A stretch of DNA of 55,574 bases from Patescibacteria group bacterium (GTDB lineage Bacteria > Patescibacteriota > Patescibacteriia > Magasanikbacterales > GWA2-37-8), in NCBI GenBank assembly GCA_004321885.1, contig SCQK01000001.1, forward strand, positions 1-55,574. Reading direction: 5' to 3'. A program made the translations under genes and the position numbers. Numbering within the stretch: position 1 is the stretch's first letter; every line of letters begins with the position of its first letter. Below the pieces are notes generated by a model. The model was not told where the DNA came from. It saw nothing but the letters and a program-made list of their open reading frames with translations, and searched no databases. Of the stretch, positions 31,795 through 47,235 are shown piece by piece.

Positions 31795-32709
31795 ATGGGA
31801 CAACTAATAGACGGAAAATTGATTGCCAAGCATATTGAAGCCGAGACCGCAAGGAGAGTGGCTTTGCTCAAGGAGAAAGGAGCGAAACCAAAGCTTGCGG
31901 TTTTTTTAGTCGGCGAAGACAAGCCGTCGCAAAAGTACGTCAAGAAAAAAGGCGAGGCCGCGCAGCGCGTGGGCCTGGATTTTGTTTTACATGAGTTGGC
32001 GGGCGATATTGGCATGGCCGAGTTGGTGGAAAAAATAGAAGACGCCCAGCATAATGAGGAGCTGTCGGGGATAATTATTCAGCTGCCTTTACCCGAACAT
32101 CTGTACACTTCCGAAGTGTTAAACGCCATTCATCCGGAAATTGACGTGGACTGTTTGACCGACGTGAACTTGGGCAAGTTGGTGATGAAGACCAACCACA
32201 TTGTGCCGCCAACACCGGGCGCGGTCATTACTATAATAAAGGATTTGGGCGTGGATTTGGTGGGGAAAAACGTTGTCATTATCGGCGCCGGCGCCTTGGT
32301 AGGCAAGCCGCTTTCCATAATGATGATGAATGAAAGGGCGAGCGTGACCACTTGCAACAGCGCCACGCGCGACACCAAAGAAAAATGCCTGTCCGCCGAT
32401 ATAATCGTGACCGGCGTGGGTAAAAAAGATTTATTGCGCGGTGGTATGGTGAAAGAAGGCGCCATTGTGATAGACACGGGCGTGGCTTTCGTGGATGGGA
32501 AAATGTATGGTGATGTGAACGTGGACGAGGTGATGGAGCGCGCCGCGCACGTGACGCCTACTCCCGGCGGTGTGGGCCCCTTAACCGTGGTGCGCCTTTT
32601 GTGGAATACGGTGCTGTGCGCGGAAAGAAATTTGGAACTTGGGCTGAAACCGCATTCGCGAGAAAGAATAAAATACGAAGGGCATCGGCCGGCGAAGTAT
32701 AAGCTTTAA
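31795..32709 (+). CDS. folD: bifunctional methylene-THF dehydrogenase / methenyl-THF cyclohydrolase
   Basis: IDGKLIAKHI...VGEDKPSQKYVKKK...GxGxxVGKP Rossmann motif. Confidence 0.9.
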   Translation: MGQLIDGKLIAKHIEAETARRVALLKEKGAKPKLAVFLVGEDKPSQKYVKKKGEAAQRVGLDFVLHELAGDIGMAELVEKIEDAQHNEELSGIIIQLPLPEHLYTSEVLNAIHPEIDVDCLTDVNLGKLVMKTNHIVPPTPGAVITIIKDLGVDLVGKNVVIIGAGALVGKPLSIMMMNERASVTTCNSATRDTKEKCLSADIIVTGVGKKDLLRGGMVKEGAIVIDTGVAFVDGKMYGDVNVDEVMERAAHVTPTPGGVGPLTVVRLLWNTVLCAERNLELGLKPHSRERIKYEGHRPAKYKL

Positions 32710-32799: not shown

Positions 32800-34116
32800 A
32801 TGTCACAACTTACTGTCGTGGTTGGCGCCCAGTGGGGCGATGAGGGCAAGGGGAAAATAACCGACTATCTGGCCAAAGACGCCGACTTTGTGGTTCGTTT
32901 CCAAGGAGGCAACAACGCCGGACATACGTTGGTAGTTGGGGATAAAATTTACAAACTACACCTGATTCCATCGGGTGTTTTGTATCCGGGCGCGGTTTCA
33001 ATAATCGGCAACGGCGTGGTGGTGGACCCGCTCACCCTGCTAAAAGAAATCAGCGAGTTTAAAAAAGACGGCCTGGCGCTTAATCTAAAAATCAGCAACC
33101 GTTGTCATGTCATCATGCCATATCACATTGCCTTGGATGGGGCTTTGACCGGACATCAGGGCGGGCTGGCCGCCGGCAGCACCAACCGCGGCATTGCCCC
33201 GGTCTGCGCCGATAAAAGCTATCGTCACGGCATCCGGCTGGGCGATTTGCTGGAACCGGAAATGCTTCGGGAAAAATTAGCCGTGTCATACAATTTCAAC
33301 AAAGCGATTTTGGAAAAAATTTTTAACACGCCTTTCGCCCTGTCGGAAGAAGAAATTTATAATCAGTTTTTGGATTATGGCAAATTATTGGCGCAGTACA
33401 TTGACGATACTGATGTTTTGCTTTATCGCGCCTACAAAGAAGGCAAAAATATCTTGTTTGAAGGGGCGCAGGGTTTGTCCTTGGATCTGGATGTCGGCGT
33501 GTACCCGCATACCACCAGCACCAACACGTTGGCCAGCCATATCGGCGTGGGCACGGGCGTGGGATACGACGGGAATAAACGCGTAATCGGAGTGGCCAAG
33601 GCATACGTGAGCCGCGTGGGCACCAGTCCTTTTATCACCGAACTGCCCGAAGAAGAAGCCAAGGCCTTGCGCGACAAGGGCGGCGAATACGGCACGACCA
33701 CTGGCCGTCCGCGCCGCGTGGGCTGGCTGGATTTGGTGCAACTGCGGCAGGCCGTGCGCTGTAACGGGCTGACTGAATTGGCGCTCATTAAATTGGACGT
33801 GCTAGCCGATTATGAAAAAGTGTTGGTTTGCACCTCGTATGATATAGATGGAAAAGACACCAGAGAAATGCCGGCCAGTTTGTCGCAGTTGCGCCGGGCC
33901 AAACCGGTTTATCAAGAATTCACCGGTTGGCCGGTGATAGATGGAACGGCTTTGAAACAAGGCGGGTTTAAGGGGTTGCCGCTTGAGATAAAAAACTTTG
34001 TGGAGTTTATTGAGAAAGAAACAGAGTGTCCGATCAGTATGTTGTCGTTCGGACCGGAGCGGGAACAAACCATTATTCGTGTCATTGCGAGCGAAGCGAA
34101 GCAATCCCATTCGTAA
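32800..34116 (+). CDS. purA: adenylosuccinate synthetase
   Basis: QWGDEGKGKITD, GGNNAGHT and GTTGRG motifs. The C-terminal 12 aa are encoded by the family C repeat. Confidence 0.95.
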   Translation: MSQLTVVVGAQWGDEGKGKITDYLAKDADFVVRFQGGNNAGHTLVVGDKIYKLHLIPSGVLYPGAVSIIGNGVVVDPLTLLKEISEFKKDGLALNLKISNRCHVIMPYHIALDGALTGHQGGLAAGSTNRGIAPVCADKSYRHGIRLGDLLEPEMLREKLAVSYNFNKAILEKIFNTPFALSEEEIYNQFLDYGKLLAQYIDDTDVLLYRAYKEGKNILFEGAQGLSLDLDVGVYPHTTSTNTLASHIGVGTGVGYDGNKRVIGVAKAYVSRVGTSPFITELPEEEAKALRDKGGEYGTTTGRPRRVGWLDLVQLRQAVRCNGLTELALIKLDVLADYEKVLVCTSYDIDGKDTREMPASLSQLRRAKPVYQEFTGWPVIDGTALKQGGFKGLPLEIKNFVEFIEKETECPISMLSFGPEREQTIIRVIASEAKQSHS

Positions 34117-34163: not shown

Positions 34164-36540
34164 AACATCAAATATGATAACGACTGATTTCACGAAAATG
34201 GATGAAGCGCAAATAAAGGAATTTTTGGTTGCCAACAGAATCGCGCTGACGGTGGAAGAAATTTTGAAGATCCAAAACGAAATCTTGAAACGGCCACCCA
34301 CGCTGGCCGAGTGTATTTTGTGGTCCATTCAGGGATCAGAGCACAGCTCGTACAAATCCAGTCGTCCGCACTTGAAACAATTTCACACCAGCGGTCCCAA
34401 CGTAATACTCGGCCCCAGTGAAGACGCCGGCATTGTGGAAATTTGCTGCGACAACGAGGGCCGAAAATACGGCGTAGTGATAAGCCACGAATCGCACAAT
34501 CATCCGTCGCAAGTGGTGCCCTACGAGGGCGCGGCCACGGGCGTAGGCGGCAATGTGCGCGATGTCTGCTGCATGGGCGCGAAAGTAATCGCCTGCGCCG
34601 ACCCTCTGCGCTTCGGACAAATTGACAGTAATAAATCCAAATGGGTGCACGAGGGCGTGGTCTCGGGCATTGCCGGCTATGGCAATCCAATCGGCGTGCC
34701 AAACATCGGCGGCGACTTGTATTACGACGAATCCTACAATGAAAATTGTCTGGTCAACATTGTTACTTTGGGTGTCTTGCGCGAAGACGACATCATACAC
34801 TCGCGCGCGCCGCAAAACGCCGATGGTTATGATTTGGTTTTGGTCGGCAAGCCAACTGACAACAGCGGCTTTGGTGGCGCCAGTTTTGCTTCGTTGGAAT
34901 TAAAAGAAGAAGAAAAAGAACTCAACAAGGGCGCGGTGCAGGAGCCGAACGCTTTTTTGAAGCGCCATTTGCTCAAATCCACCTACGCGCTTTTCAAAAA
35001 AATAAAAGAGGGCGGTTTGATGGATAAAGTGGGTTTCAAAGATTTGGGCGCCGGAGGAATTGCCTGCGCTTCAGTGGAATTGGCCGACGCGGCCGGCTAT
35101 GGCGCCGAAGTGGATATTGATAAAATCCCCAAGGGCATGAACGGACTTAATCCGGCCGTGATTTTGTGCTCCGAGACGCAGGAAAGATTTATGTGGGTGA
35201 GTCATCCGGACGTGACACCGGTTATTTTGGAGCATTATAATGAAATCTTTGATTTGCCCGGCATTGCCGAAGGCGCGCGAGCGGCGGTGGTGGGGAAAAT
35301 TCGCGCTGACGGGCGCTATGTGGTGACAGCCGGCGGAGAAGAAATCGTGAGCGCGCGAGCGCAAGACGTGACACGGGGATTATTGTACAATCGGCCATGG
35401 GAAAAACCCGAGAAAAAATTGAGTGAACCAAACTTGCCCGAGCCAACCGATTACAGTGAAATACTTTTAAAAATTTTGGCCCACGAAAATGTGGCCTCGC
35501 GTTTGCCGGTTTATGAACAGTACGACAAGCAAGTGCAGGGCATCACAATGATTGAATCGGGCCGGGCTGACGCGGGCGTTTTGCAGCCATTTAAGGATGA
35601 CAGTTACCCGGAGGAAATTCGGCAAACCGGCGTCGCTTTGTCAGTGGACCAAAATCCGCGCTACTCCAAGATTGATTCTTATTGGGGGGCGGTAAACGCG
35701 GTAGTGGAAAGCTGCCGCAATGTGGCGGCTGTCGGCGCTGTGCCGTGGGCGTTGACCGATTGTTTGTGCTATGGCAATCCGGAAAAGCCAACCCAGATGT
35801 ATGAATTCGTGGAAGGGGCGCGCGGGGTGGCCGAGGCGGCCAAGGGTTTGCATTTGAAGGACTTCCCGGAAAATCCGGTGCCGATTGTTTCGGGCAATGT
35901 GTCGCTTTACAACGAAAGCAAAGGCAAACCCATCGCTCCCAGCGCCATAATTTCATGCACCGGAAAATTGAGCGACGTGAAGTGCGCGATTGACATGTCG
36001 TTTAAAAAAGCCGACTCAATTATTTTTATGGTCGGCGAGCGCAAAGACGAATGCGGGGGCAGTGTTTATTATAATTTGTTTAAAGAATTGGGAGCCAATG
36101 TACCCAAGCCGGATTTGGCGGAAGCGGAAAAACAAATTTTTGCCGTGACTGACGCGATAGAGGCTGGTCTGGTTTTGGCGGCTCACGATATTTCCGACGG
36201 CGGCTTGGCCGTCTGCTTGGCCGAGATGAGTTTTGGAAATGAGATTGGTTTCGTCTGTCATTCCCGCGAAAGCGGGAATCCAGGGTCGCAACTTCGCCCC
36301 GACAAAGTTCTTTTTTCCGAAACCGGCGGTTTTGTTTTGGAAGTGTCGCCGGAAAACCGCGGCGCAGTGGAAGAAATTTTCGCCAAACGCGGAGTAAAAA
36401 TCTTTGCCATCGGAAAAACCGCCTGTCATTCCGGGCTTGACCCGGGATCCATAACAACGTTAAAGTTTGGAGATGTAATCAACGTACCTTTAAAAGAAGC
36501 AAAAAAAGCGTGGACAGAGGGTTTGTGGGGCAAGCTGTAA
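34126..36540 (+). CDS. purL: phosphoribosylformylglycinamidine synthase subunit PurL
   Basis: PurM-like duplicated domains of FGAM synthase II. The true start is probably MTTSNM at ~34159. Contains an in-frame family A repeat (VCHSRESGNPGSQ). Confidence 0.9.
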   Translation: MLRSRLSRGLAMTTSNMITTDFTKMDEAQIKEFLVANRIALTVEEILKIQNEILKRPPTLAECILWSIQGSEHSSYKSSRPHLKQFHTSGPNVILGPSEDAGIVEICCDNEGRKYGVVISHESHNHPSQVVPYEGAATGVGGNVRDVCCMGAKVIACADPLRFGQIDSNKSKWVHEGVVSGIAGYGNPIGVPNIGGDLYYDESYNENCLVNIVTLGVLREDDIIHSRAPQNADGYDLVLVGKPTDNSGFGGASFASLELKEEEKELNKGAVQEPNAFLKRHLLKSTYALFKKIKEGGLMDKVGFKDLGAGGIACASVELADAAGYGAEVDIDKIPKGMNGLNPAVILCSETQERFMWVSHPDVTPVILEHYNEIFDLPGIAEGARAAVVGKIRADGRYVVTAGGEEIVSARAQDVTRGLLYNRPWEKPEKKLSEPNLPEPTDYSEILLKILAHENVASRLPVYEQYDKQVQGITMIESGRADAGVLQPFKDDSYPEEIRQTGVALSVDQNPRYSKIDSYWGAVNAVVESCRNVAAVGAVPWALTDCLCYGNPEKPTQMYEFVEGARGVAEAAKGLHLKDFPENPVPIVSGNVSLYNESKGKPIAPSAIISCTGKLSDVKCAIDMSFKKADSIIFMVGERKDECGGSVYYNLFKELGANVPKPDLAEAEKQIFAVTDAIEAGLVLAAHDISDGGLAVCLAEMSFGNEIGFVCHSRESGNPGSQLRPDKVLFSETGGFVLEVSPENRGAVEEIFAKRGVKIFAIGKTACHSGLDPGSITTLKFGDVINVPLKEAKKAWTEGLWGKL
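36257..36284. repeat. family A repeat, in-frame in purL
   Basis: gtcattcccgcgaaagcgggaatccagg. Confidence 0.8.
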
Positions 36541-36590
36541 AAAAAGAAGCGGTCCCGCGAGCAAAGGCGCTCGCGGAACCGCCACGGCCC

Positions 36591-36827
36591 TCACTTGGAC
36601 CCCAGACCCGAGACGGACTTGTAGTTCACGCCGAGGTAGAGCGTGCGGTCCGTGCCGAGCGCATTGAACTGCTCGATCTGGGTCCGGATGCTCTGAAGCA
36701 GGGCCTCCCCGACCGTTTTCGGATCGCCTCCGTCCGGGATGCTGGACGTCTCCTTGTTGTCGTCCAGGTTCCTTGCCGCTCTACTGACGGGCGTCTCTCC
36801 ATAGTCTTCCCCATCATCAGGCCTCAT
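36591..36827 (-). CDS. small acidic hypothetical protein (78 aa) in a GC-rich islet inside the pur operon
   Basis: AAGGAGAGG RBS 5 nt before ATG. GC-rich. Flanked by the hairpin gcggtcccgcgagc/gctcgcggaaccgc at 36546-36585. Confidence 0.4.
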   Translation of the reverse strand: MRPDDGEDYGETPVSRAARNLDDNKETSSIPDGGDPKTVGEALLQSIRTQIEQFNALGTDRTLYLGVNYKSVSGLGSK

Positions 36828-36896
36828 CGCGTCCTCTCCTTGTCTTGCCCCCTTAAAATTCTAAATCGTACTCAATTCTACAAAAATTAGCCATTT

Positions 36897-38060
36897 ATGT
36901 CAAACATCTCTTATTCCGATTCCGGCGTCAATTACCAGGCGCTTGATCCGGTGAAAAAATTGGCGCAAATCGCGGCCCGGTCCACGGCTCGTCATTTGTC
37001 GTCGTCCGGTTTCACCGAATCAGAAGACACGCGCGGCGAGTCGGCTTATGTTTGGCAGCAAGGCGACCTCCTGATGGCCTCGGTCATTGAAGGCCTGGGC
37101 ACCAAAAATTTGGTGGCTGACGCCATGCGTAAAATTACCGGCAAGACCTATTACGATATTGTCAGCCACGATACTGTGGCTACGATTATAAACGATCTTG
37201 TTTCGGTGGGCGCCAAGCCGCTTGCTCTCTTCGCTTACTGGGCCGTGGGCAAAAGCGAATGGCTGGCCGACGCGGAAAGGACAAAGGATTTGGCGGACGG
37301 CTGGAAGTCGGCTTGTGATTTAGCCCAAGTTTCCTGGGGAGGCGGCGAAACCCCCGCCTACGCCGGCATCATTAATCCGGAGACCATTGATTTGGCAGGT
37401 TCGGCCGTGGGTATTATTAAAGATAAAAATAATTTGCTCACGGACAAAAAAATACAGGCCGGAGACAGGATAATTTTTTTGAAAAGCAACGGCATAAACG
37501 CCAACGGTTTGTCGCTGGCGCGCGCGATTGCAAATACCCCCTCCTCGCCTCCCCCTTATAAAGGGGGAGGAAATCGTCTCCCTCCCCTTTATAAGGGGAG
37601 GGTTGGGGAGGGGTATGGTGCCAAGCTGCCAAGTGGCGTAATGTACGGAGAAGCATTACTCACAAAAACAAACATCTACGCGAAATTGGTACAGGACTTG
37701 CAGGCGGCAGAAGTAGATATACATTATATTACAAATATCACCGGACATGGATTGCGTAAAGTTATGCGCGGTAGGCCGAATTTTACATACGTAATAGAGA
37801 AAATTTTTGAACCGCTGGAATTATTTATTTTTATGCAAGGTCAGGCCGGGCTTTCGGATTTTGAAATGTATCAGACGTTTAACATGGGGCAGGATTACGC
37901 GATTTACTTATCAGCCGCCGACGTGGCCCGCGCTTTGGAAGTGATAAAACAAAATAATTTTACAGGCATTGAGGCGGGTTTTGTGGAAGCGGGCGAAAAG
38001 CGCGTGATAATCAAACCGAAGAATTTAGAGTATAAAGGAGAGACGTTGGATTTGAGATAA
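36897..38060 (+). CDS. purM: phosphoribosylformylglycinamidine cyclo-ligase (AIR synthetase)
   Basis: SYSDSGVNYQALDP and PurM N- and C-terminal domain patterns. Contains a tandem in-frame family D insertion (SPPPYKGGGNRLPPLYKGRVGEG). Confidence 0.85.
   Translation: MSNISYSDSGVNYQALDPVKKLAQIAARSTARHLSSSGFTESEDTRGESAYVWQQGDLLMASVIEGLGTKNLVADAMRKITGKTYYDIVSHDTVATIINDLVSVGAKPLALFAYWAVGKSEWLADAERTKDLADGWKSACDLAQVSWGGGETPAYAGIINPETIDLAGSAVGIIKDKNNLLTDKKIQAGDRIIFLKSNGINANGLSLARAIANTPSSPPPYKGGGNRLPPLYKGRVGEGYGAKLPSGVMYGEALLTKTNIYAKLVQDLQAAEVDIHYITNITGHGLRKVMRGRPNFTYVIEKIFEPLELFIFMQGQAGLSDFEMYQTFNMGQDYAIYLSAADVARALEVIKQNNFTGIEAGFVEAGEKRVIIKPKNLEYKGETLDLR
37537..37614. repeat. tandem family D repeats, in-frame in purM
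   Basis: cccctcctcgcctcccccttataaagggggagg...cctcccctttataaggggagggttggggaggggt. Confidence 0.8.
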
Positions 38061-38065
38061 ACATT

Positions 38066-39412
38066 ATGAAAGTCGCCATCATACAATTCCCCGGCAGTAA
38101 CTGTGAATCGGAATCCATTTACGCGGTGCGGCGCGCCGGCATGGAGCCGGTGGAATTTTTGTGGAATCAAGAGCACGACGAGCTGAAAAATTTTGACGGC
38201 TATTTCATCGTGGGCGGATTTTCCTACGAAGACCGCTCGCGCTCGGGCATCATCGCCTCGCTTGATCCCCTGCTTACCGCCTTGAAAGCGGAAAACGAAA
38301 AAGGCAAACCGATTCTGGGCGTTTGCAATGGGGCGCAGATTTTGGTGGAGTCGGGCATTGTGCCGGGCCTAGCCGACTATGCCGTGGGCCACCACACCAA
38401 AGATTTTGGTGTGGTGGCAGGTATGGCGCTCGCTGTAAACAAACGAGTGAAAGACGGACGCGTGCTGGGCACCGGATTTTATAATTCCTGGTCCAACGTC
38501 CAACTGTCGGCCCCGAGCGAACGCTCGGCTTTCACGCGCCACATGAAGCCGGGCGAATTTATAAATATTCCCGTGGCGCACGGCGAAGGCCGCTTTACCA
38601 TGCCGGACGAACTCTTGGCCGAATTGATTGTCAAAAACCAAACAGTGTTTCGCTACTGCGATGACAGGGGAGAAATCAGTTCGGAATTTCCGGTAAATCC
38701 GAACGGCTCCATGCATAATTTAGCGGCTGTCTGCAACGCGGCCGGCAACGCCATGGCCATGATGCCCCACCCCGAACGCACGCCGAACGGCCAAGCCATT
38801 TTTACTTCCATGCGCGAGTATGTTGAAAAAGAAAAAACCATAACGATGAAAAACGTTACGGATAATTTCCGGCCAACCGTGATGGAAATATCCGAGTATA
38901 AGCCGGAACCAAATTCTACAGAATTAGTCATCGGTTTAATCATTACAGACAATGAAGCCGGCACGGTAAAAAATACTTTGCGTCGGTTGAATATTGACGC
39001 GGAAATTACGAAATACATTCACTGGGAAATTTCGGCTGACGACCCGGCGACGATTGTCGCTTCGCCGGCTTGCCGCGACGAGCTATTTAACTCCAACAAA
39101 GAAAAGATAGTGCAACTGGGCTCCACAGCCCCGGTCGCCTGCGGCGACCGTGGGACTATGGAGTCAACCAATGCGCTTCAGAATGACAATACGGCTTATC
39201 TGCTCGTGCGCTATCGCGAAGATTTCGTGGGGCAAAGCAAACAGTATGTTTTGGAAAATCGGCTGGGCGTTTCCGGGGTTAAAAAGATAACCAAAGGCAC
39301 GCTCTGGAAAATTTCCGCGCCCAGTGATAGGATTGAGGAAATCGTAAGCAAGGTTATTTCCAGCAGGATTTTATTCAATCAATTTTCACAGGGGTGTTTT
39401 AAATATATATAG
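38066..39412 (+). CDS. purQ: FGAM synthase glutaminase subunit PurQ with a ~210-aa C-terminal extension, possibly tandem PurS-like domains
   Basis: Class I glutamine amidotransferase triad: GVCNGAQIL Cys and the His in PHPER. The extension resembles two ~85-aa PurS-like modules. Confidence 0.8.
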   Translation: MKVAIIQFPGSNCESESIYAVRRAGMEPVEFLWNQEHDELKNFDGYFIVGGFSYEDRSRSGIIASLDPLLTALKAENEKGKPILGVCNGAQILVESGIVPGLADYAVGHHTKDFGVVAGMALAVNKRVKDGRVLGTGFYNSWSNVQLSAPSERSAFTRHMKPGEFINIPVAHGEGRFTMPDELLAELIVKNQTVFRYCDDRGEISSEFPVNPNGSMHNLAAVCNAAGNAMAMMPHPERTPNGQAIFTSMREYVEKEKTITMKNVTDNFRPTVMEISEYKPEPNSTELVIGLIITDNEAGTVKNTLRRLNIDAEITKYIHWEISADDPATIVASPACRDELFNSNKEKIVQLGSTAPVACGDRGTMESTNALQNDNTAYLLVRYREDFVGQSKQYVLENRLGVSGVKKITKGTLWKISAPSDRIEEIVSKVISSRILFNQFSQGCFKYI

Positions 39413-39413
39413 T

Positions 39414-40805
39414 ATGGATTACACTTCCATCATCAGACAAAATCTGAATAATTGTCTGACGCAGACGAATTTAAATATCGGCAAGAAAAAAATTGGCAAG
39501 GTGCGCGATACCTATGAACTCGCCGATAAAATGATTCTAGTCACTACTGACCGACAGAGCGCTTTTGACCGCATTTTGGCTTCCATCCCGTTTAAGGGGC
39601 AAGTGCTCAATCAAACCAGCGCCTGGTGGTTTGAAAAAACCAAACACATTATCCCCAATCATGTTTTGTCTATCCCCGACCCCAACGTGACCATGGCCAA
39701 AAAATGCCAAGTTTTTCCGATTGAGTTTGTGGTGCGCGGGTATATCACCGGCACCACCGACACTTCGGCTTGGGTAAATTATCAAAAAGGGGTGCGTAAT
39801 TTTTGCGGCAACGCTTTACCCGAGGGTCTGAAAAAAAATCAGCAGCTGGCCAAGGCGATTGTCACGCCCACCACCAAGTCCGACGCCCACGACCGTCTGA
39901 TCAGTCCCGAAGAGATTATCGCCGAAGGACTGATGTCGCGTGAAGATTGGAACTTCGCTTCAACCAAGGCCCTGGAACTTTTTGAATTCGGCCAACAAGT
40001 GGCTCGCGAGCACGGCTTGATTTTGGTTGACACCAAATACGAGATGGGTAAAGACGAAAACGGCAATATTATTTTGTTAGACGAGATCCACACGCCCGAT
40101 TCCAGTCGCTATTGGATCGCCGAAACATACGAAGACCGTTTCGCCGCCGGACAAGAACCGGAAAACATAGATAAAGAATTTTTGCGCTTGTGGTTTAAAG
40201 AACACTGCGACCCGTATGGCGACAAAGAACTGCCGCCGGCGCCCGAGGAATTGGTGGTGGAATTATCCCGCCGCTATATCATGCTTTACGAAATGATTAC
40301 TGGCGAAAAATTTGTTTTCCCGGAGGACGCCGACATCAACGAGAGAATGAAAAATAATTTGGCTGTCATCGCGAACTCTCCTCTGAGAATAAACTCCGCA
40401 AAGCAACCCCCCGCAAAAAGGGCGGTGATAATAATGGGTTCGGAAGCGGACGCGGAGTTCACGAAAAAGATTACGATAAAATTGGACGAACTGGGGGTCA
40501 GCCACGAAGAGCATGTCGCGTCGGCGCACAAACAGCCGGCAAAGGTTTTGGAAATTTTAGAGAAAAATAAAAATGAGAAAGTGGTGTACGTGACCATCGC
40601 CGGCCGTTCCAACGCGCTCTCGGGTTTTGTGGCCGCCAATTCCGACGCGCCCACCCTGGCCTGTCCACCCTTTGTCGACAAGCTGGATATGCTCGTGAAC
40701 ATTCACTCTACTTTGCAGATGCCGAGTAACGCGCCAGTTTTAACCGTGCTTGATCCAGGCAACTGCGCCTTGGCCGTTAAAAGAATTTTTGATATATGTC
40801 GCTAA
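39414..40805 (+). CDS. purC: fusion protein: SAICAR synthetase (PurC) plus C-terminal PurE (AIR carboxylase / N5-CAIR mutase) domain
   Basis: PurC N-terminal motif GKVRDTY...VTTDRQSAFD. PurE C-terminal motif AVIIMGSEADAE...VASAHKQP...VTIAGRSNALSGFVAANSDAPTLACPP. Confidence 0.85.
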   Translation: MDYTSIIRQNLNNCLTQTNLNIGKKKIGKVRDTYELADKMILVTTDRQSAFDRILASIPFKGQVLNQTSAWWFEKTKHIIPNHVLSIPDPNVTMAKKCQVFPIEFVVRGYITGTTDTSAWVNYQKGVRNFCGNALPEGLKKNQQLAKAIVTPTTKSDAHDRLISPEEIIAEGLMSREDWNFASTKALELFEFGQQVAREHGLILVDTKYEMGKDENGNIILLDEIHTPDSSRYWIAETYEDRFAAGQEPENIDKEFLRLWFKEHCDPYGDKELPPAPEELVVELSRRYIMLYEMITGEKFVFPEDADINERMKNNLAVIANSPLRINSAKQPPAKRAVIIMGSEADAEFTKKITIKLDELGVSHEEHVASAHKQPAKVLEILEKNKNEKVVYVTIAGRSNALSGFVAANSDAPTLACPPFVDKLDMLVNIHSTLQMPSNAPVLTVLDPGNCALAVKRIFDICR

Positions 40806-42130
40806 CTTCCGTTTCTCCCTTAGACGGACGCTACGAAAGCCAGACAAAAGAACTCTCCCCCTATTTTTCCGAAATGGCGCTGATGAAATATCGCGTCATG
40901 GTTGAAGTTGAGTATTTAATCGCGTTGGGGGCGGAGAAAGAAATTAAGGAAGTCATTCGCTTTTCGGAAAAAGAGCAAAAAAATTTACGCTCGCTTTATA
41001 AGCGCTTTTCTTTGGCCCACGCCGAGCGGGTGAAAGAAATTGAAAATACCACCAGTCATGATGTGAAAGCGGTTGAGTATTTTATTAAGGAGAAATTTCC
41101 CAGTGAATTTATACATTTCGCGCTGACTTCCGAGGACATCAATAATCTTGCCTATTCTTTAATGCTTAAAGACGGATTGGAAAAAGTGATTTATCGCGCC
41201 GTGGAGCAGATTTTGAAAGCGCTTAAAAACTTGGCCAAAGCCAACGCCCGCGTTCCCCTGCTGGCCTTCACCCATGGCCAGCCCGCCACCCCCACCACGC
41301 TCGGCAAGGAAATGGCGGTTTTTTACAAACGGCTTTTACGCGGCCTGAATCACCTCAAATTTATCAAACTGGACGGAAAATTAAACGGGGCCACCGGCAA
41401 TTACGCGGCCGCGGCCTTGGCCTACCCGCAAGTTGACTGGATAAAATTTTCCCAAAAATTCGTGAGCTCGCTGGGCCTGAACCCTAATTTGCTCACCACG
41501 CAGATAGAACCGCACGATTGTTCGGCCGCGGTTTACGACGCCATCGCGCGCCTGAACAATATTATAAAGGACTTGGACCAGGATATATGGCTCTACGTCA
41601 GCCGCGGCATTTTCAAATTGCGAAAAAAAGCCGGCGAGGTCGGCTCTTCCACCATGCCGCACAAAGTGAACCCGATTAATTTTGAAAACAGCGAAGGCAA
41701 TCTGGGTGTGGCTAACGCCATTTTGCGTTTCATGTCCGACAAGCTGGTGGTAAGCCGTCTGCAACGCGACCTCACCGACAGCACGGTGATTCGCAATCAA
41801 GGCGCGGCGCTGGGCTACAGTCTGCTCGCCTATAAAAATACGCTCAAAGGTTTGGAAAAATTGGAAGTGAACAAAAAACAATGCGAGAAAGAGCTGGATG
41901 AGCATTGGGAAGTACTGGCCGAGGCGGTGCAGACGGTTTTGCGCAAGGTGGGATACGAGAAGCCCTATGAAAAATTGAAAGAATTGACCCGTGGAGAAAA
42001 AGTGGATAAAAAAATAATGCGGGCTTTTATAGCGGGACTGGAAATTTCCAATGAAGAAAAAAATAAATTGATGAAATTGACACCCGCAAAGTATGTAGGG
42101 TTGTCGGAGAAATTAGTAAAGTTAATTTAG
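40796..42130 (+). CDS. purB: adenylosuccinate lyase
   Basis: SPLDGRYES... and the fumarate lyase signature GSSTMPHKVNP. Confidence 0.95.
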   Translation: MSLTSVSPLDGRYESQTKELSPYFSEMALMKYRVMVEVEYLIALGAEKEIKEVIRFSEKEQKNLRSLYKRFSLAHAERVKEIENTTSHDVKAVEYFIKEKFPSEFIHFALTSEDINNLAYSLMLKDGLEKVIYRAVEQILKALKNLAKANARVPLLAFTHGQPATPTTLGKEMAVFYKRLLRGLNHLKFIKLDGKLNGATGNYAAAALAYPQVDWIKFSQKFVSSLGLNPNLLTTQIEPHDCSAAVYDAIARLNNIIKDLDQDIWLYVSRGIFKLRKKAGEVGSSTMPHKVNPINFENSEGNLGVANAILRFMSDKLVVSRLQRDLTDSTVIRNQGAALGYSLLAYKNTLKGLEKLEVNKKQCEKELDEHWEVLAEAVQTVLRKVGYEKPYEKLKELTRGEKVDKKIMRAFIAGLEISNEEKNKLMKLTPAKYVGLSEKLVKLI

Positions 42131-42222: not shown

Positions 42223-45072
42223 ATGTGCGGAGTTGTAGGAATTTATTCCAAAAAACCAGTGGCGCAGGAATTGTATGATTCTTTAATCCACTTACAGCAT
42301 CGCGGGCAAGACGCGGCCGGCATTTTGACGTACCAAGAAAAATTTCATTTCAAAAGGGGGCTGGGACTGGCGCGCGATATTTTCCACACGCACGACATGG
42401 AGCGGCTCACCGGCAATATCGGCATCGCGCACACGCGCTACCCCACCACCGGCCGCATTGAAATTGAAGATGCCCAGCCGTTTTGGACCGGCGTGCCTTT
42501 TGGCATGGCCTTGGCGCATAACGGCAATCTGGTAAATTACAACGAGGTCAAGCGTAAGGTTTTTGAAGAACGTCATCGCTATGTCAACTCCACCAGCGAC
42601 GGCGAAGTAATTTTGCACGTGTTGGCCGATGAGTTGGTAAAAGGCATGGCAGAAAATCACGTTGATACTTTTTTTGACCTGCTGTGCGACGCCGTGGCCC
42701 GTCTTTTCAAAGCGACCAGCGGAGCATATTCAGTGGTCAGCATTATCGTGGGCAAGGGCATGCTGGCGTTTCGCGATCCGCATGGCATCCGTCCGCTCAC
42801 GCGTGGCGCGCGCGTCAATCCCGATGGCAGCAAGGACTATATTTTTGCTTCCGAAAACATCATGTTTTATCCGCTTGGCTTTAAGCAAGAAGAGGATGCA
42901 AAACCCGGCGAGGTGATATTTATAGACAACGACGGCAATTTACACAGCAGAGTGGTTGGACGCGAAGCCGCTTTGGGCCAGCGCGAACCCGAATTTTCTC
43001 CTTGCATTTTTGAATACATTTATTTCGCGCGCCCAGACTCTATGATGAATAACGTGAGCGTGTACCGCTCGCGTCTGCGCATGGGACAAAATTTGGCCAA
43101 GGCGTGGAAGACAAAATTTCCCAACGTAATGCCCGACGTCGTCATACCCGTGCCTTTCACTTCCAACACCGCGGCATTGGCCATGGCGCACGAACTCGGC
43201 GTGCGCTACAGCGAAGGACTTTATAAAAACGCCTTCATCGGCCGCACTTTTATCATGCCCAATCAGGAATTGAGGCGAAAGTCAGTGCGCTACAAGCTTA
43301 ATCCGCAGGAAACGGAAATTCGGGACAAAAATGTGATGCTTTTGGACGACAGCATCGTGCGCGGCACGACCAGCCGTGAAATCGTGCAAATGATGCGTGA
43401 GTTTGGAGCCAAGGAAGTATATTTTGTCACCACTTGCCCGCCGGTCAAATTTCCGTGCTTTTACGGAGTGGACATGCCTACGAAATCAGAACTTGTCGCG
43501 TCGGCCCGGACCGAAGAAGAAGTGAGATTATATATCGGCGCTGATATTTTGCTTTATCAAAACATTCCCGACTTGGTGGAAGCAGTCACGCGCGTTCAAA
43601 GCATAGAGCACCCATGTATGGCTTGCCTGAACGGGCACTACGTGACCGGCGACGTGGATGAAAAAAAATTTAAAGAAATAGAAGCGAGTAGAAATAAAGA
43701 TAAGGGGATTAAAAAATCTATGGATATACTTATTATCGGTTCAGGAGCACGCGAGCATGCGATTGCGCGCGCGGTGGTTCGCTCACCGCAAAAACCGCGG
43801 CTGTTTTGTTTTGCTTCAAGCAACAACCCGGGCATACGCGAACTATCGGTCGGTTACGCGGTGGGAAAAATTACCGACCCAACGGCGGTGATAAATTTCG
43901 CCAAAGAGAACGCGATTGATATCGCTATCGTGGGCCCCGAAGCCCCGCTGGCCTCTGGCGTGGCTGACGCCTTGTGGGCGGCAGGCGTGGCTTGTGTTGG
44001 ACCAAAGCAAAAATTGGCGCGGCTGGAAACGAGTAAGGGTTTTACGCGCGATTTACAGGCCGAATTTAAGATTCCGGGCAGTCCGAAATACAAAAAATTC
44101 AGTTCTTTGGAAGGGGCTAAAGAATTTTTATCCGAGCTCGGCGATTTGTACGTGGTAAAAGCGGACGGCCTGATGGGAGGCAAAGGAGTGAAAGTGGCCG
44201 GGGATCATTTGCATACTTATGAAGAAGCGCTGGCCTATTGTCAGGAATTATTGGATAGTTGTCATTCCCGCGAAAGCGGGAATCCAGGTGCGGCCTTTGT
44301 CATCGAAGAAAAGTTAATCGGCCAGGAATTTTCACTGATGAGTTTTTGCGACGGCGAGCATTTGGCTCACACGCCCGCGGTTCAAGATCACAAGCGGGCT
44401 TTTGACGGCGACCAGGGGCCAAACACGGGAGGCATGGGAAGTTATAGCGACGCGGATCATAAATTGCCTTTTTTGACTGATGAAGATATCTGGCAGGCGC
44501 GCGAGATAAATAAAAAAACCGCGGTGGCTTTGAAGGCGAAATTCGGGGAGGGATATGTTGGTGTTTTGTATGGAGGATTTATGGCTACGGCGGACGGAGT
44601 AAAATTGATAGAGTATAATGCCCGTTTGGCCGACCCGGAGGCGATGAACATATTGGCCGTGCTGGAATCGGATTTCGCGGCGCTGTGTCAGGCGATTGTG
44701 GGCGGAAATTTAAGACAAGAGCACGCGCTTTTCGCGAACAAGGCGACGGTTTGTAAATACGCCGTGCCCGAGGGCTACCCGGACAGTCCGGTAAAAAATC
44801 AAAAAATAGACACGAGCGGCGTAGCCGACAAAAATCAATTGTATTTGGCTTCGGTTGACGCGCGAGATGATGGGTTGTACGAACTGGGCTCGCGCGCCAT
44901 CGCGGTGGTGGGCGTGGCCGATACAATTGCCGAGGCGGAAAAAATTGCGGAAGCGGAAGTCAACAATATCAAAGGCCCGCTGTTTCACCGTCAAGACATT
45001 GGAACTCCGGAATTAATTAATAAGAGAATCCAACACATGTCATTCCTGCGAAAGCAGGAATCCAGGATATGA
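42223..45072 (+). CDS. purF: fusion protein: amidophosphoribosyltransferase (PurF) plus phosphoribosylamine-glycine ligase (PurD)
   Basis: N-terminal MCGVVGI nucleophile and PRTase domain to ~aa 480. A continuous frame then runs into the PurD ATP-grasp domain (MDILIIGSGAREHAIA...). Two in-frame family A repeats. Confidence 0.85.
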   Translation: MCGVVGIYSKKPVAQELYDSLIHLQHRGQDAAGILTYQEKFHFKRGLGLARDIFHTHDMERLTGNIGIAHTRYPTTGRIEIEDAQPFWTGVPFGMALAHNGNLVNYNEVKRKVFEERHRYVNSTSDGEVILHVLADELVKGMAENHVDTFFDLLCDAVARLFKATSGAYSVVSIIVGKGMLAFRDPHGIRPLTRGARVNPDGSKDYIFASENIMFYPLGFKQEEDAKPGEVIFIDNDGNLHSRVVGREAALGQREPEFSPCIFEYIYFARPDSMMNNVSVYRSRLRMGQNLAKAWKTKFPNVMPDVVIPVPFTSNTAALAMAHELGVRYSEGLYKNAFIGRTFIMPNQELRRKSVRYKLNPQETEIRDKNVMLLDDSIVRGTTSREIVQMMREFGAKEVYFVTTCPPVKFPCFYGVDMPTKSELVASARTEEEVRLYIGADILLYQNIPDLVEAVTRVQSIEHPCMACLNGHYVTGDVDEKKFKEIEASRNKDKGIKKSMDILIIGSGAREHAIARAVVRSPQKPRLFCFASSNNPGIRELSVGYAVGKITDPTAVINFAKENAIDIAIVGPEAPLASGVADALWAAGVACVGPKQKLARLETSKGFTRDLQAEFKIPGSPKYKKFSSLEGAKEFLSELGDLYVVKADGLMGGKGVKVAGDHLHTYEEALAYCQELLDSCHSRESGNPGAAFVIEEKLIGQEFSLMSFCDGEHLAHTPAVQDHKRAFDGDQGPNTGGMGSYSDADHKLPFLTDEDIWQAREINKKTAVALKAKFGEGYVGVLYGGFMATADGVKLIEYNARLADPEAMNILAVLESDFAALCQAIVGGNLRQEHALFANKATVCKYAVPEGYPDSPVKNQKIDTSGVADKNQLYLASVDARDDGLYELGSRAIAVVGVADTIAEAEKIAEAEVNNIKGPLFHRQDIGTPELINKRIQHMSFLRKQESRI
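44261..44288. repeat. family A repeat, in-frame in the purD portion
   Basis: gtcattcccgcgaaagcgggaatccagg, translating to SCHSRESGNPGA. Confidence 0.8.
45039..45066. repeat. family A variant (cctgcg/cagg) at the purFD 3' end / purN start
   Basis: gtcattcctgcgaaagcaggaatccagg. Confidence 0.75.
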
Positions 45073-45653
45073 TAAAACTCGCCGTCCTCGGCTCTACCCG
45101 CGGCACAGACATGCAGGCGATAGTTGACGCGATTGAGCGAAAGGAGCTGAACGCAAAAATTGAAGTAGTGGTAAGCAATAAGCTGGACGCGTATATCTTG
45201 GAACGCGCGCGCAGGCACGGTTTGGAGGCGGTTTTTGCGGACATGAGAAGAGAAAGTGGAGAAAAAAAAACGCGCGAAGAATTTGACGCCGAGGTTTTAA
45301 AAATTTTAGAGGCAAAGCAAGTTGATTTAGTTTTGCTTATTGGCTATATGCGTATTTTATCGCCTACCTTTGTGCGAAAATACAAGGGCCGAATTTTGAA
45401 CGTGCACCCTTCCTTGCTTCCGGATTTCGCCGGCGGCATGGACATGGATGTGCACGCCGAGGTAATAAAAGCGGGCGTGAAAGAAACCGGTTGCACGATT
45501 CACCTGGTGGACGAGGGCGTGGATACAGGAGAGATTATTTTGCAAAAACGCTGCGCCGTGGAGCCAACCGACACAGCCGACACGCTCAAAGCTAAAGTGC
45601 AAAAACTTGAAGGTGAAGCGTTTGTGGAGGTATTAAGAAATTGGAAATTTTAA
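45069..45653 (+). CDS. purN: phosphoribosylglycinamide formyltransferase
   Basis: ILNVHPSLLP and the rest of the formyltransferase core. Confidence 0.9.
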   Translation: MIKLAVLGSTRGTDMQAIVDAIERKELNAKIEVVVSNKLDAYILERARRHGLEAVFADMRRESGEKKTREEFDAEVLKILEAKQVDLVLLIGYMRILSPTFVRKYKGRILNVHPSLLPDFAGGMDMDVHAEVIKAGVKETGCTIHLVDEGVDTGEIILQKRCAVEPTDTADTLKAKVQKLEGEAFVEVLRNWKF

Positions 45654-45654
45654 T

Positions 45655-47235
45655 ATGCATACAGAAGTCGTTAGAATAAATCGGGCGCTGATTTCGGTGT
45701 CAAATAAAACCGGCATAGCGGAGTTTGCCCGCGAACTCCAAAAATTGGGCGTGGAAATAATTTCCACCGGCGGCACGCACAAATTGCTTTGCGAAAACAA
45801 AATACCGGCCGTGGAAATTTCCCAGTACACCGGCTTTCCGGAAATGATGGACGGCCGCGTGAAAACCCTGCACCCCTTGGTGCACGGTGGCATCTTGGGT
45901 TTGCGGGATAAACACGCCGAAGCCGCAGCCGGCCATAATATTAAATGGATTGATTTGGTGGTTTGCAATTTGTATCCTTTTTTGGAAACAATAAAAAAAC
46001 CCGGCGTAACCGAGGAGGAAGCGATTGAAAACATAGACATCGGCGGGCCCACCATGATTCGCTCGGCCGCCAAAAATATTGGCTGGACGTGCGCGGTGGT
46101 TGACCCCGAGGATTATAGTAAAATTTTGGCTGAAATAAGAGAAAAAAACGGAGTAAGTTTTGACACGCGCAAAGCACTTTCGGCGAAAGCGTACGCGCAC
46201 ACGACGCGCTATGACGCGGTGATTTCCAATTATTTCAAGCCGGAAAAATTTCCCAAAGAACTCTCGCTCGGTTTTGCTAAATATTATGATTTGCGCTACG
46301 GCGAAAATCCGCATCAGCAAGCCGCGGCCTACAAAGACGAGCTCTGCGCCACAGCGAATATTTTTTTAGCGAAAATCTTGCAGGGCAAGCAGTTATCGTA
46401 CAACAATTTCATTGACGCGGACGCGGCCCTGCAGATGGTAAAGGAATTTGAGCCGCCGGCTTGCGTGATTGTGAAGCATAACAATCCCTGCGGAGCGGCC
46501 ATTGCCGAAAACGCGGAAGCGGCTTTCGCCAAAGCGTTTGCCTGCGATTCGTTGTCGGCTTTCGGCGGGGTGGTGGCGCTTAATCGCGAGTGCGACGCGG
46601 CTCTGGCCGAGAAACTCTCCAAAATATTTTTGGAAATCGTGCTCGCGCCCAAGTTCGCGCCTGCGGCCGTGGAAATTTTATCTAAAAAACAAAATCTGCG
46701 CTTGCTGGAATTGGAAAAAATATCAGTGCCGGCCAGCCGGCTGACTTACAAGCTGATTGAGGGTGGGCTCTTGGCGCAAGACAGCAATACAAAAGAAATT
46801 ACCGAAGCGGATTTGAAAGTCGTGACCAAGCGCCGGCCCGAAACAGGCGAAATTCAAGCCATGCTCTTCGCCTGGAAAATATTGAAGCACATGAAATCAA
46901 ACGCCATTTTGATAGCCAAGGCCGACGCCACGGTGGGAATCGGCGTGGGCCAAGTGTCACGCGTGGATTCGGTGGATATTGCCATAAAAAAATCCGGTAT
47001 GGCTGGCTCCATAGTCCCCGACTTAGTCGGGGCCGTGGAGCCGTTCGCCGGCTGCGTGCTGGCCTCGGACGCCTTTTTCCCCTTCCGCGACAGCATAGAC
47101 AAAATCGCGGCCGCCGCCGGCGTCAAAGCCATTGTCCAGCCCGGGGGTTCCATCAAAGACCAGGAAGTCATCGCGGCCTGCGACGAACACGGCATCGCCA
47201 TGGTCTTTACCGGCCATCGCTGTTTCGCGCATTGA
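45655..47235 (+). CDS. purH: bifunctional AICAR transformylase / IMP cyclohydrolase
   Basis: MGS-like N-terminal region (ALISVSNKTG) and the AICARFT domain. Contains an in-frame family B repeat. Confidence 0.95.
   Translation: MHTEVVRINRALISVSNKTGIAEFARELQKLGVEIISTGGTHKLLCENKIPAVEISQYTGFPEMMDGRVKTLHPLVHGGILGLRDKHAEAAAGHNIKWIDLVVCNLYPFLETIKKPGVTEEEAIENIDIGGPTMIRSAAKNIGWTCAVVDPEDYSKILAEIREKNGVSFDTRKALSAKAYAHTTRYDAVISNYFKPEKFPKELSLGFAKYYDLRYGENPHQQAAAYKDELCATANIFLAKILQGKQLSYNNFIDADAALQMVKEFEPPACVIVKHNNPCGAAIAENAEAAFAKAFACDSLSAFGGVVALNRECDAALAEKLSKIFLEIVLAPKFAPAAVEILSKKQNLRLLELEKISVPASRLTYKLIEGGLLAQDSNTKEITEADLKVVTKRRPETGEIQAMLFAWKILKHMKSNAILIAKADATVGIGVGQVSRVDSVDIAIKKSGMAGSIVPDLVGAVEPFAGCVLASDAFFPFRDSIDKIAAAAGVKAIVQPGGSIKDQEVIAACDEHGIAMVFTGHRCFAH
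47007..47044. repeat. family B 38-bp palindrome, in-frame in purH
   Basis: ggctccatagtccccgacttagtcggggccgtggagcc, translating to GSIVPDLVGAVEP. Confidence 0.8.

Follow-up and report, generated by a model that had tools for sequence, protein, structure and literature searches.

Introduction

Formylglycinamidine ribonucleotide (FGAM) synthetase is known in several subunit arrangements. In the three-subunit enzyme, a PurS dimer is needed together with PurQ and the small type of PurL (PMC3261824, PMC3815217). In large PurL, a PurS-equivalent N-terminal domain, which has been equated with the PurS dimer (PMC3815217), adjoins both the glutaminase and the synthetase domains (PMC3261824, PMC3815217). 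The archaeal mdPurL, or 'PurSL', described by Brown et al. in 2011, carries a PurS-like domain of about 200 residues on the N-terminal end of PurL, and five out of six mdPurL-bearing species are without purS (PMC3261824). Here, a different arrangement is described for a 55,574-nucleotide stretch of DNA (the window) from contig SCQK01000001.1 of a Patescibacteria group bacterium (assembly GCA_004321885.1), where a single open reading frame (ORF) on the plus strand, at positions 38066-39412, encodes PurQ with a long C-terminal extension. With a probability of about 85%, this extension is a tandem PurS-like module that stands in for PurS, and the protein is therefore referred to as PurQ-SS.

The PurQ-SS system has much in common with PurLQS of B. 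subtilis and T. maritima (PDB 3D54; PurL:PurQ:PurS2), including a small PurL (TIGR01736), a PurQ-type glutaminase (TIGR01737), two PurS-fold units, and the same predicted chemistry and ammonia channelling. In contrast, PurS is a free homodimer of about 80-amino acid chains in PurLQS, whereas here two diverged repeats in tandem (R1 and R2) form a covalent extension of PurQ at its C-terminus, and their sequence is too diverged for PurS hidden Markov models (HMMs). PurLQS contains four chains of three kinds, while the PurQ-SS enzyme would consist of two polypeptides. Large PurL (lgPurL; Salmonella 1T3T, human PFAS 9N9W) has its tandem at the N-terminus, followed by a linker domain, with the glutaminase at the far C-terminus; in PurQ-SS, the tandem comes after the glutaminase and lies on a polypeptide separate from PurL. 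Joining the two termini of lgPurL (SS-linker-L-Q) would place SS after Q, as found here, and PurQ-SS thus resembles a permuted and split lgPurL; the sequence similarity between the lgPurL N-terminal domain and the extension is not significant. Like mdPurL, which occurs mostly in genomes without purS, PurQ-SS has a PurS-like module of about 200 amino acids fused to a partner subunit, but the module is on the C-terminus of PurQ instead of the N-terminus of PurL. Large PurL and mdPurL are the two known forms in which a partner has absorbed PurS, and PurQ-SS is a new variant architecture, not a new system. No description of PurQ with a C-terminal PurS tandem was found in the searchable full-text literature.

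A PurQ glutaminase with a conserved tandem extension

The ORF has 448 codons, encodes a 448-amino acid protein and begins 6 nucleotides past the purM stop codon. Over residues 1-254, the protein is an ordinary PurQ glutaminase. In particular, Pfam GATase_5 (PF13507) matches residues 2-242 (E = 1.8e-46, 158.8 bits versus a cut-off of 27), and the NCBIfam equivalog TIGR01737 matches residues 1-240 (212.9 bits versus a cut-off of 177.8). The class I amidotransferase triad, composed of C87 (in GVCNGAQ) with H235 and E237 (both in MPHPER), is invariant across 88 homologues, and a small purL, the expected partner gene of PurQ, is found in the same purine operon, two genes upstream. The PDB entries that best match a full-length AlphaFold2 model (predicted local distance difference test score, pLDDT, of 85.6; predicted template modelling score, pTM, of 0.87) are T. 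maritima PurQ (3d54_D, E = 4e-15) and large PurL, the latter through its glutaminase domain. The domain also contains an 11-residue insertion (approximately GHHTKDFGVVA) at residues ~106-117 (window positions ~38381-38416), which is present in 0 of 34 aligned homologues; nowhere is the model less confident than in this segment, where pLDDT falls below 50 at residues 106-111.

Beyond the glutaminase, residues 255-448 contain no above-threshold domain. The extension is nevertheless a genuine conserved module, neither junk nor read-through: across 24 diverse homologues (extension alignment A2), its sequences share 34-47% identity, with invariant motifs in both R1 (ITDNEA at 293-298, HWE at 319-321 and GELFNSNKE at 338-346) and R2 (LVRYxDDxxGxxK at 380-392, W414 and ILFNxxS at 435-441). 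The two linkers are variable. The linker between PurQ and R1 has insertions and deletions in alignment A1, pLDDT values of 64-76 and no regular secondary structure, and the linker between the repeats is poorly conserved and longer here than in most homologues.

AlphaFold2 predicts that R1 (284-349) and R2 (376-446) are separate units, each with a beta-alpha-beta(beta)-alpha-beta arrangement. The predicted elements of R1 are a strand (284-291), a helix (296-307), a long strand or hairpin (313-324), helices (327-340) and a strand (346-349); those of R2 are a strand (376-383), a helix (387-399), a long strand (405-417), a helix (423-433) and a strand (442-446). Profile comparison further establishes a relationship between R1 and R2, as the two align using hhalign (probability 91.7%, P = 7.9e-7) and the HMM of each repeat matches the opposite repeat in 6/6 proteins tested. 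A preliminary description of this DNA, made from its sequence, had proposed a ~210-residue extension with two beta-alpha-beta segments of ~85 residues. The first figure was close, with ~195-205 residues past the PurQ domain (PF13507 ends at 242 and TIGR01737 at 240), and the two segments were recovered in the model, but their length was overestimated, as the units have ~66-71 residues.

The predicted structure of the extension

Because the full-length model matched PDB structures through the PurQ domain only, a separate model of the extension was needed. This template-free AlphaFold2 model, built from 24 sequences (pLDDT 86.7, pTM 0.80), was searched against solved structures using Foldseek. 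All 17 matches with E < 1e-3 are large PurL, with about 175 aligned columns and TMq values of 0.53-0.56; the next matches are PurS chains from four species with probabilities of 0.8-0.97. In a comparison with 48,164 chains, the model selected only FGAM-synthetase components. The aligned lengths of 131-137 residues in the structure matches indicate that both repeats superpose together, reproducing the geometry of the PurS dimer. Moreover, chains of small PurL, PurM and PurQ are present in the PDB, yet none of them was among the matches, and the matched part of large PurL is therefore its N-terminal domain, which small PurL and PurQ lack. Accordingly, each predicted repeat adopts the PurS fold, a small unit with the order beta-alpha-beta-beta-alpha-beta and about 75 residues, and the two repeats pack against each other as PurS-like halves of a pseudo-dimer, as in the N-terminal domain of large PurL. 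At the level of predicted models, this structure comparison is the decisive evidence for the PurS / large-PurL N-domain fold. The full-length pTM of 0.87 would additionally fit a tandem packed against PurQ in a fixed position.

Sequence comparison with PurS

The sequence signal is weak, but specific and consistent. Among Pfam families, the extension matches PF02700 (PurS) alone (E = 0.0018, 18.9 bits, residues 293-346, within R1 only). When members were scanned singly, 12 of 24 matched PF02700 at E < 1, none better than 0.0018, and every other Pfam family was matched by at most one of the 24. A PurS alignment and HMM were constructed from six PurS proteins of solved structure, after verification of their sequences in the PDB; they were used instead of homologues of B. 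subtilis PurS, as a search for these had returned only Bacillaceae sequences at 80-99% identity, unsuitable for a diverse PurS profile. Using hhalign, R1 aligns with PurS over 59 columns (probability 68.5%, P = 4.6e-5), and the alignment of R2 with PurS is full-length and in register, though weak. Plausible motif correspondences can be drawn from these alignments, where the PurS motif VLDPQG pairs with ITDNEA in R1 and DDFVGQ in R2, V.DVR.GK pairs with I.KYIHWE and VKKITKG..W, and LLANPVIE pairs with ELFNSNKE and ILFNQFSQ.

These comparisons bear on whether the extension could be an unrelated domain, its resemblance to PurS being an artefact of structure prediction or a chance similarity. Such an explanation would account for the chance-level matches of the extension profile to PDB sequences and for the lack of NCBIfam matches. 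However, it would require that a template-free, high-confidence model select only FGAM-synthetase components from the whole structure set by accident, that independent sequence signals (PF02700, the 12/24 members and hhalign) agree with it, and that the genomic context be precisely that of the enzyme that needs PurS. An unrelated domain is consequently very improbable.

Several observations nonetheless weigh against a PurS-like module. The PF02700 score remains below the gathering score of 22.2 bits, and the PurS family threshold is thus not reached; an NCBIfam scan of the extension, PurS models included, gave no match at E < 1; and the extension profile (A2), searched against all PDB sequences with hmmsearch, retrieved no PurS chain and only chance-level matches (E >= 0.37). 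R2 on its own is marginally PurS-like in sequence (hhalign P = 0.006, 69 columns), and the alignments of the extension with the E. coli and Salmonella large-PurL N-terminal domains are collinear, but not significant (P = 0.04-0.06). On the structural side, the fold evidence comes from a predicted structure and not a solved one, and the N-terminal domain of large PurL was assigned by elimination, as the search tools did not report target residues. Finally, the absence of purS described below is limited to this contig and to about 8-10 kb of flanking DNA in relatives, and a strongly diverged purS could escape an HMM built from six PurS sequences.

For the relation to PurS, sequence profiles do not suffice on their own. 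The preliminary description had suggested two fused PurS-like domains and named profile HMMs and structure prediction against PurS as the check; both were carried out, and while the HMM result is weak by itself, the predicted fold, the alignment of R1 with PurS and the specificity for PF02700 together favor that suggestion. By its predicted fold and its context, the extension appears to be PurS-like in role, though it falls below the PurS sequence threshold.

Absence of a separate purS gene

That the operon lacks a separate purS had been noted beforehand, and the observation extends to the whole 55.6-kb window: in a six-frame scan with the PDB-derived PurS HMM, no ORF of at least 40 amino acids was found at E < 0.6. 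Likewise, the same type of scan found no canonical purS in 1.06 Mb of related loci and flanks. Across these scans, the PurQ extension itself gave the only weak PurS-HMM matches. In five relatives, the operons contain no PF02700 gene, and PurL is always of the small type (777-779 amino acids). A 126-amino acid ORF in the gap between purL and purM (36510-36890, plus strand) was considered as a hidden purS and rejected, as it has no Pfam match and is antisense to a better-defined minus-strand cassette (Table 1).

Nor does PurL itself contain a PurS-like domain. The window's PurL matches TIGR01736 (655.6 bits) and NF002290 (670.6 bits) over residues 41-800, and its FGAR-AT_linker domain starts at residue 35, leaving no room for a PurS-like N-terminal domain. 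With ~35-40 residues before the linker domain, this PurL has neither the ~200-amino acid PurS-like region of mdPurL nor the N-terminal tandem of large PurL. The two PurS copies built into PurQ would instead explain why the operon has no separate purS gene.

It is also conceivable that the extension, although folded like PurS (a ferredoxin-like beta-alpha-beta fold), serves as an ACT-like regulatory or ligand-binding add-on, with a normal purS encoded elsewhere. The rest of the genome, outside this contig, could encode such a gene, the PurS sequence match is below threshold, and PII/GlnK-like and other small alpha/beta proteins do appear far down the Foldseek list. This alternative is considered unlikely. 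The precedent of mdPurL, where PurS has been absorbed into a partner subunit, counts in favor of a module that replaces PurS.

Proposed mechanism

In the proposed mechanism, PurQ-SS would be a functional PurQ glutaminase with a C-terminal tandem duplication of the PurS fold, where R1 and R2 would pack as a pseudo-dimer, the counterpart of the homodimer that PurS forms in three-subunit enzymes and of the large-PurL N-terminal domain. The most likely partner of PurQ-SS, in a 1:1 ratio, is the small PurL whose gene is two positions upstream; together they would form a two-polypeptide FGAR (formylglycinamide ribonucleotide) amidotransferase (EC 6.3.5.3) whose domain content would be that of PurL:PurQ:PurS2 or of large PurL. 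The built-in module would bridge PurQ and PurL during complex formation, and ammonia from glutamine hydrolysis would be channelled to the FGAR/ATP site; a separate purS gene would then be unnecessary. The chemistry of the enzyme is expected to be ordinary.

Conservation and distribution of the fusion

A profile search with the extension found 381 clusters at 50% identity (E <= 1e-3), in which the module is nearly always C-terminal and located in proteins of about 410-460 amino acids. A scan of one genome per species identified a relative in 197 genomes, mainly from Magasanikbacteria and other Patescibacteria and from Marinimicrobia/Neomarinimicrobiota/Fidelibacterota, with a few metagenome-assembled genomes (MAGs) labelled Gammaproteobacteria or Opitutaceae. 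A single ORF encodes PurQ, R1 and R2 in 82 of 85 loci, the remaining three being truncated where the contig ends. In some lineages the fusion is longer, with PurQ-SS-PurC proteins of 683-758 amino acids or longer ORFs of 889-935 codons from stop to stop; a few proteins are such triple fusions (P0309, P0363).

Short matches of about 100-260 amino acids were examined as candidate stand-alone PurS-tandem proteins, and most of these were rejected. In particular, P0242 and P0243 start at MAMMPHPER/MPHPER and P0241 starts inside the PurQ domain, identifying them as truncated gene calls, while the three locus ORFs without a PurQ domain start at a contig end and are not stand-alone modules. P0245 (165 amino acids) and P0251 (172 amino acids) are ambiguous between truncated and stand-alone proteins.

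These data address the concern that the long ORF is an artefact of assembly or annotation, for example purQ joined to a downstream gene via a lost stop codon in a MAG. The window does come from a metagenome-assembled contig, and its operon has purC-purE and purF-purD fusions that were not found in the relatives examined. However, the single-ORF architecture recurs in independent loci, in genomes from 197 species and in hundreds of protein clusters, and no stand-alone module was found, the short matches examined being truncated calls apart from the two ambiguous proteins. The comparative data effectively refute an artefact.

The gene order purA-purL-purM-purQSS-purC-purE-purB-purF-purD-purN-purH recurs in all five relatives that were inspected at the level of single genes. 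Further, the order of this 11-gene super-operon is near-identical between Patescibacteria and Marinimicrobia/Fidelibacterota MAGs (loci L001-L005, L019 and L058; proteins P0009, P0061, P0309 and P0363), and its proteins share 50-60% identity between the two groups. The super-operon may have been transferred horizontally between phyla. In places, the super-operon is interrupted by toxin-antitoxin pairs (L004) or by a type ISP restriction-modification-like gene (L001/L002). A broader evolutionary scenario is speculative and rather doubtful, namely that PurQ-SS is a third independent incorporation of PurS, either a surviving intermediate or a convergent solution between three-subunit and single-chain FGAM synthetases, and that the super-operon moved between phyla by horizontal transfer.

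Implications for annotation

In the databases, the PurS part of these proteins is unrecognised; they are named PurQ or phosphoribosylformylglycinamidine synthase I, the latter being the recorded name of a protein identical to this one, and their precomputed Pfam domains are GATase only. In Patescibacteria (Magasanikbacteria and relatives) and Marinimicrobia/Fidelibacterota, genome-based metabolic reconstructions that rely on HMMs to detect PurS will judge FGAM synthetase incomplete, and with it the de novo purine pathway. Such gaps underlie claims that these groups depend on hosts, and annotating the PurS tandem on PurQ would fill this one in at least 197 species genomes. PurQ-SS with a small PurL, and sometimes PurQ-SS-PurC, also adds a new architecture to a textbook case of amidotransferase assembly by gene fusion, and a two-chain complex with a tethered PurS may be a simpler system for studying PurS-mediated coupling between glutaminase and synthetase.

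The purine operon and neighbouring features

PurQ-SS is encoded within a purine-biosynthesis operon on the plus strand, which the preliminary description had called otherwise complete; in agreement, folD, purA, purL, purM, the extended purQ, purC-purE, purB, purF-purD, purN and purH were all identified (Table 1).

Table 1. Coordinates of PurQ-SS segments, operon genes and the minus-strand cassette in the window.
Feature	Position	Strand	Remarks
PurQ glutaminase domain, residues 1-254	38066-38827	+	PF13507, TIGR01737, Cys87/His235/Glu237
Linker from PurQ to repeat 1, residues 255-283	38828-38914	+	Length varies among homologues
PurS-like repeat 1 (R1), residues 284-349	38915-39112	+	Motifs ITDNEA, HWE, GELFNSNKE
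Inter-repeat linker, residues 350-375	39113-39190	+	pLDDT 52-61; gapped in alignments A1, A3
PurS-like repeat 2 (R2), residues 376-448 and stop codon	39191-39412	+	Motifs LVRYxDDxxGxxK, W414, ILFNxxS
folD	31795-32709	+	
purA	32800-34116	+	
purL, small type, 804 amino acids	34126-36540	+	
purM	36897-38060	+	
purQ with extension (PurQ-SS)	38066-39412	+	
purC-purE fusion	39414-40805	+	463 amino acids
purB	40796-42130	+	
purF-purD fusion	42223-45072	+	949 amino acids
purN	45069-45653	+	
purH	45655-47235	+	
Cassette promoter, near-consensus TTGACA-17-TAGAAT	36903-36875	-	
Cassette ORF, 78 amino acids	36827-36591	-	No Pfam or NCBIfam match
Cassette terminator, strong, 16-bp stem and T-run	36583-36548	-	

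There are three fusions in this one operon: Q-SS, C-E and F-D. The purC-purE fusion has phosphoribosylaminoimidazole-succinocarboxamide (SAICAR) synthetase at its N-terminus and aminoimidazole ribonucleotide (AIR) carboxylase at its C-terminus, the same domain order as in animal PAICS; the two are separate genes in the five relatives examined. There is no purK in the operon, and its PurE may accordingly belong to class II. Similarly, purF (amidophosphoribosyltransferase) and purD (glycinamide ribonucleotide synthetase) are fused in the window, while they are adjacent, separate genes in the relatives examined.

The gap between purL and purM contains a self-contained cassette on the minus strand (36548-36903), antisense to the operon, with its own promoter, ORF and terminator. 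The segment is somewhat richer in G+C (0.60-0.64) than the window (0.50), and the cassette has no counterpart among the 85 related loci; between purL and purM of locus L003, however, the minus strand also has ORFs without annotation. The cassette probably divides the operon into two transcription units.
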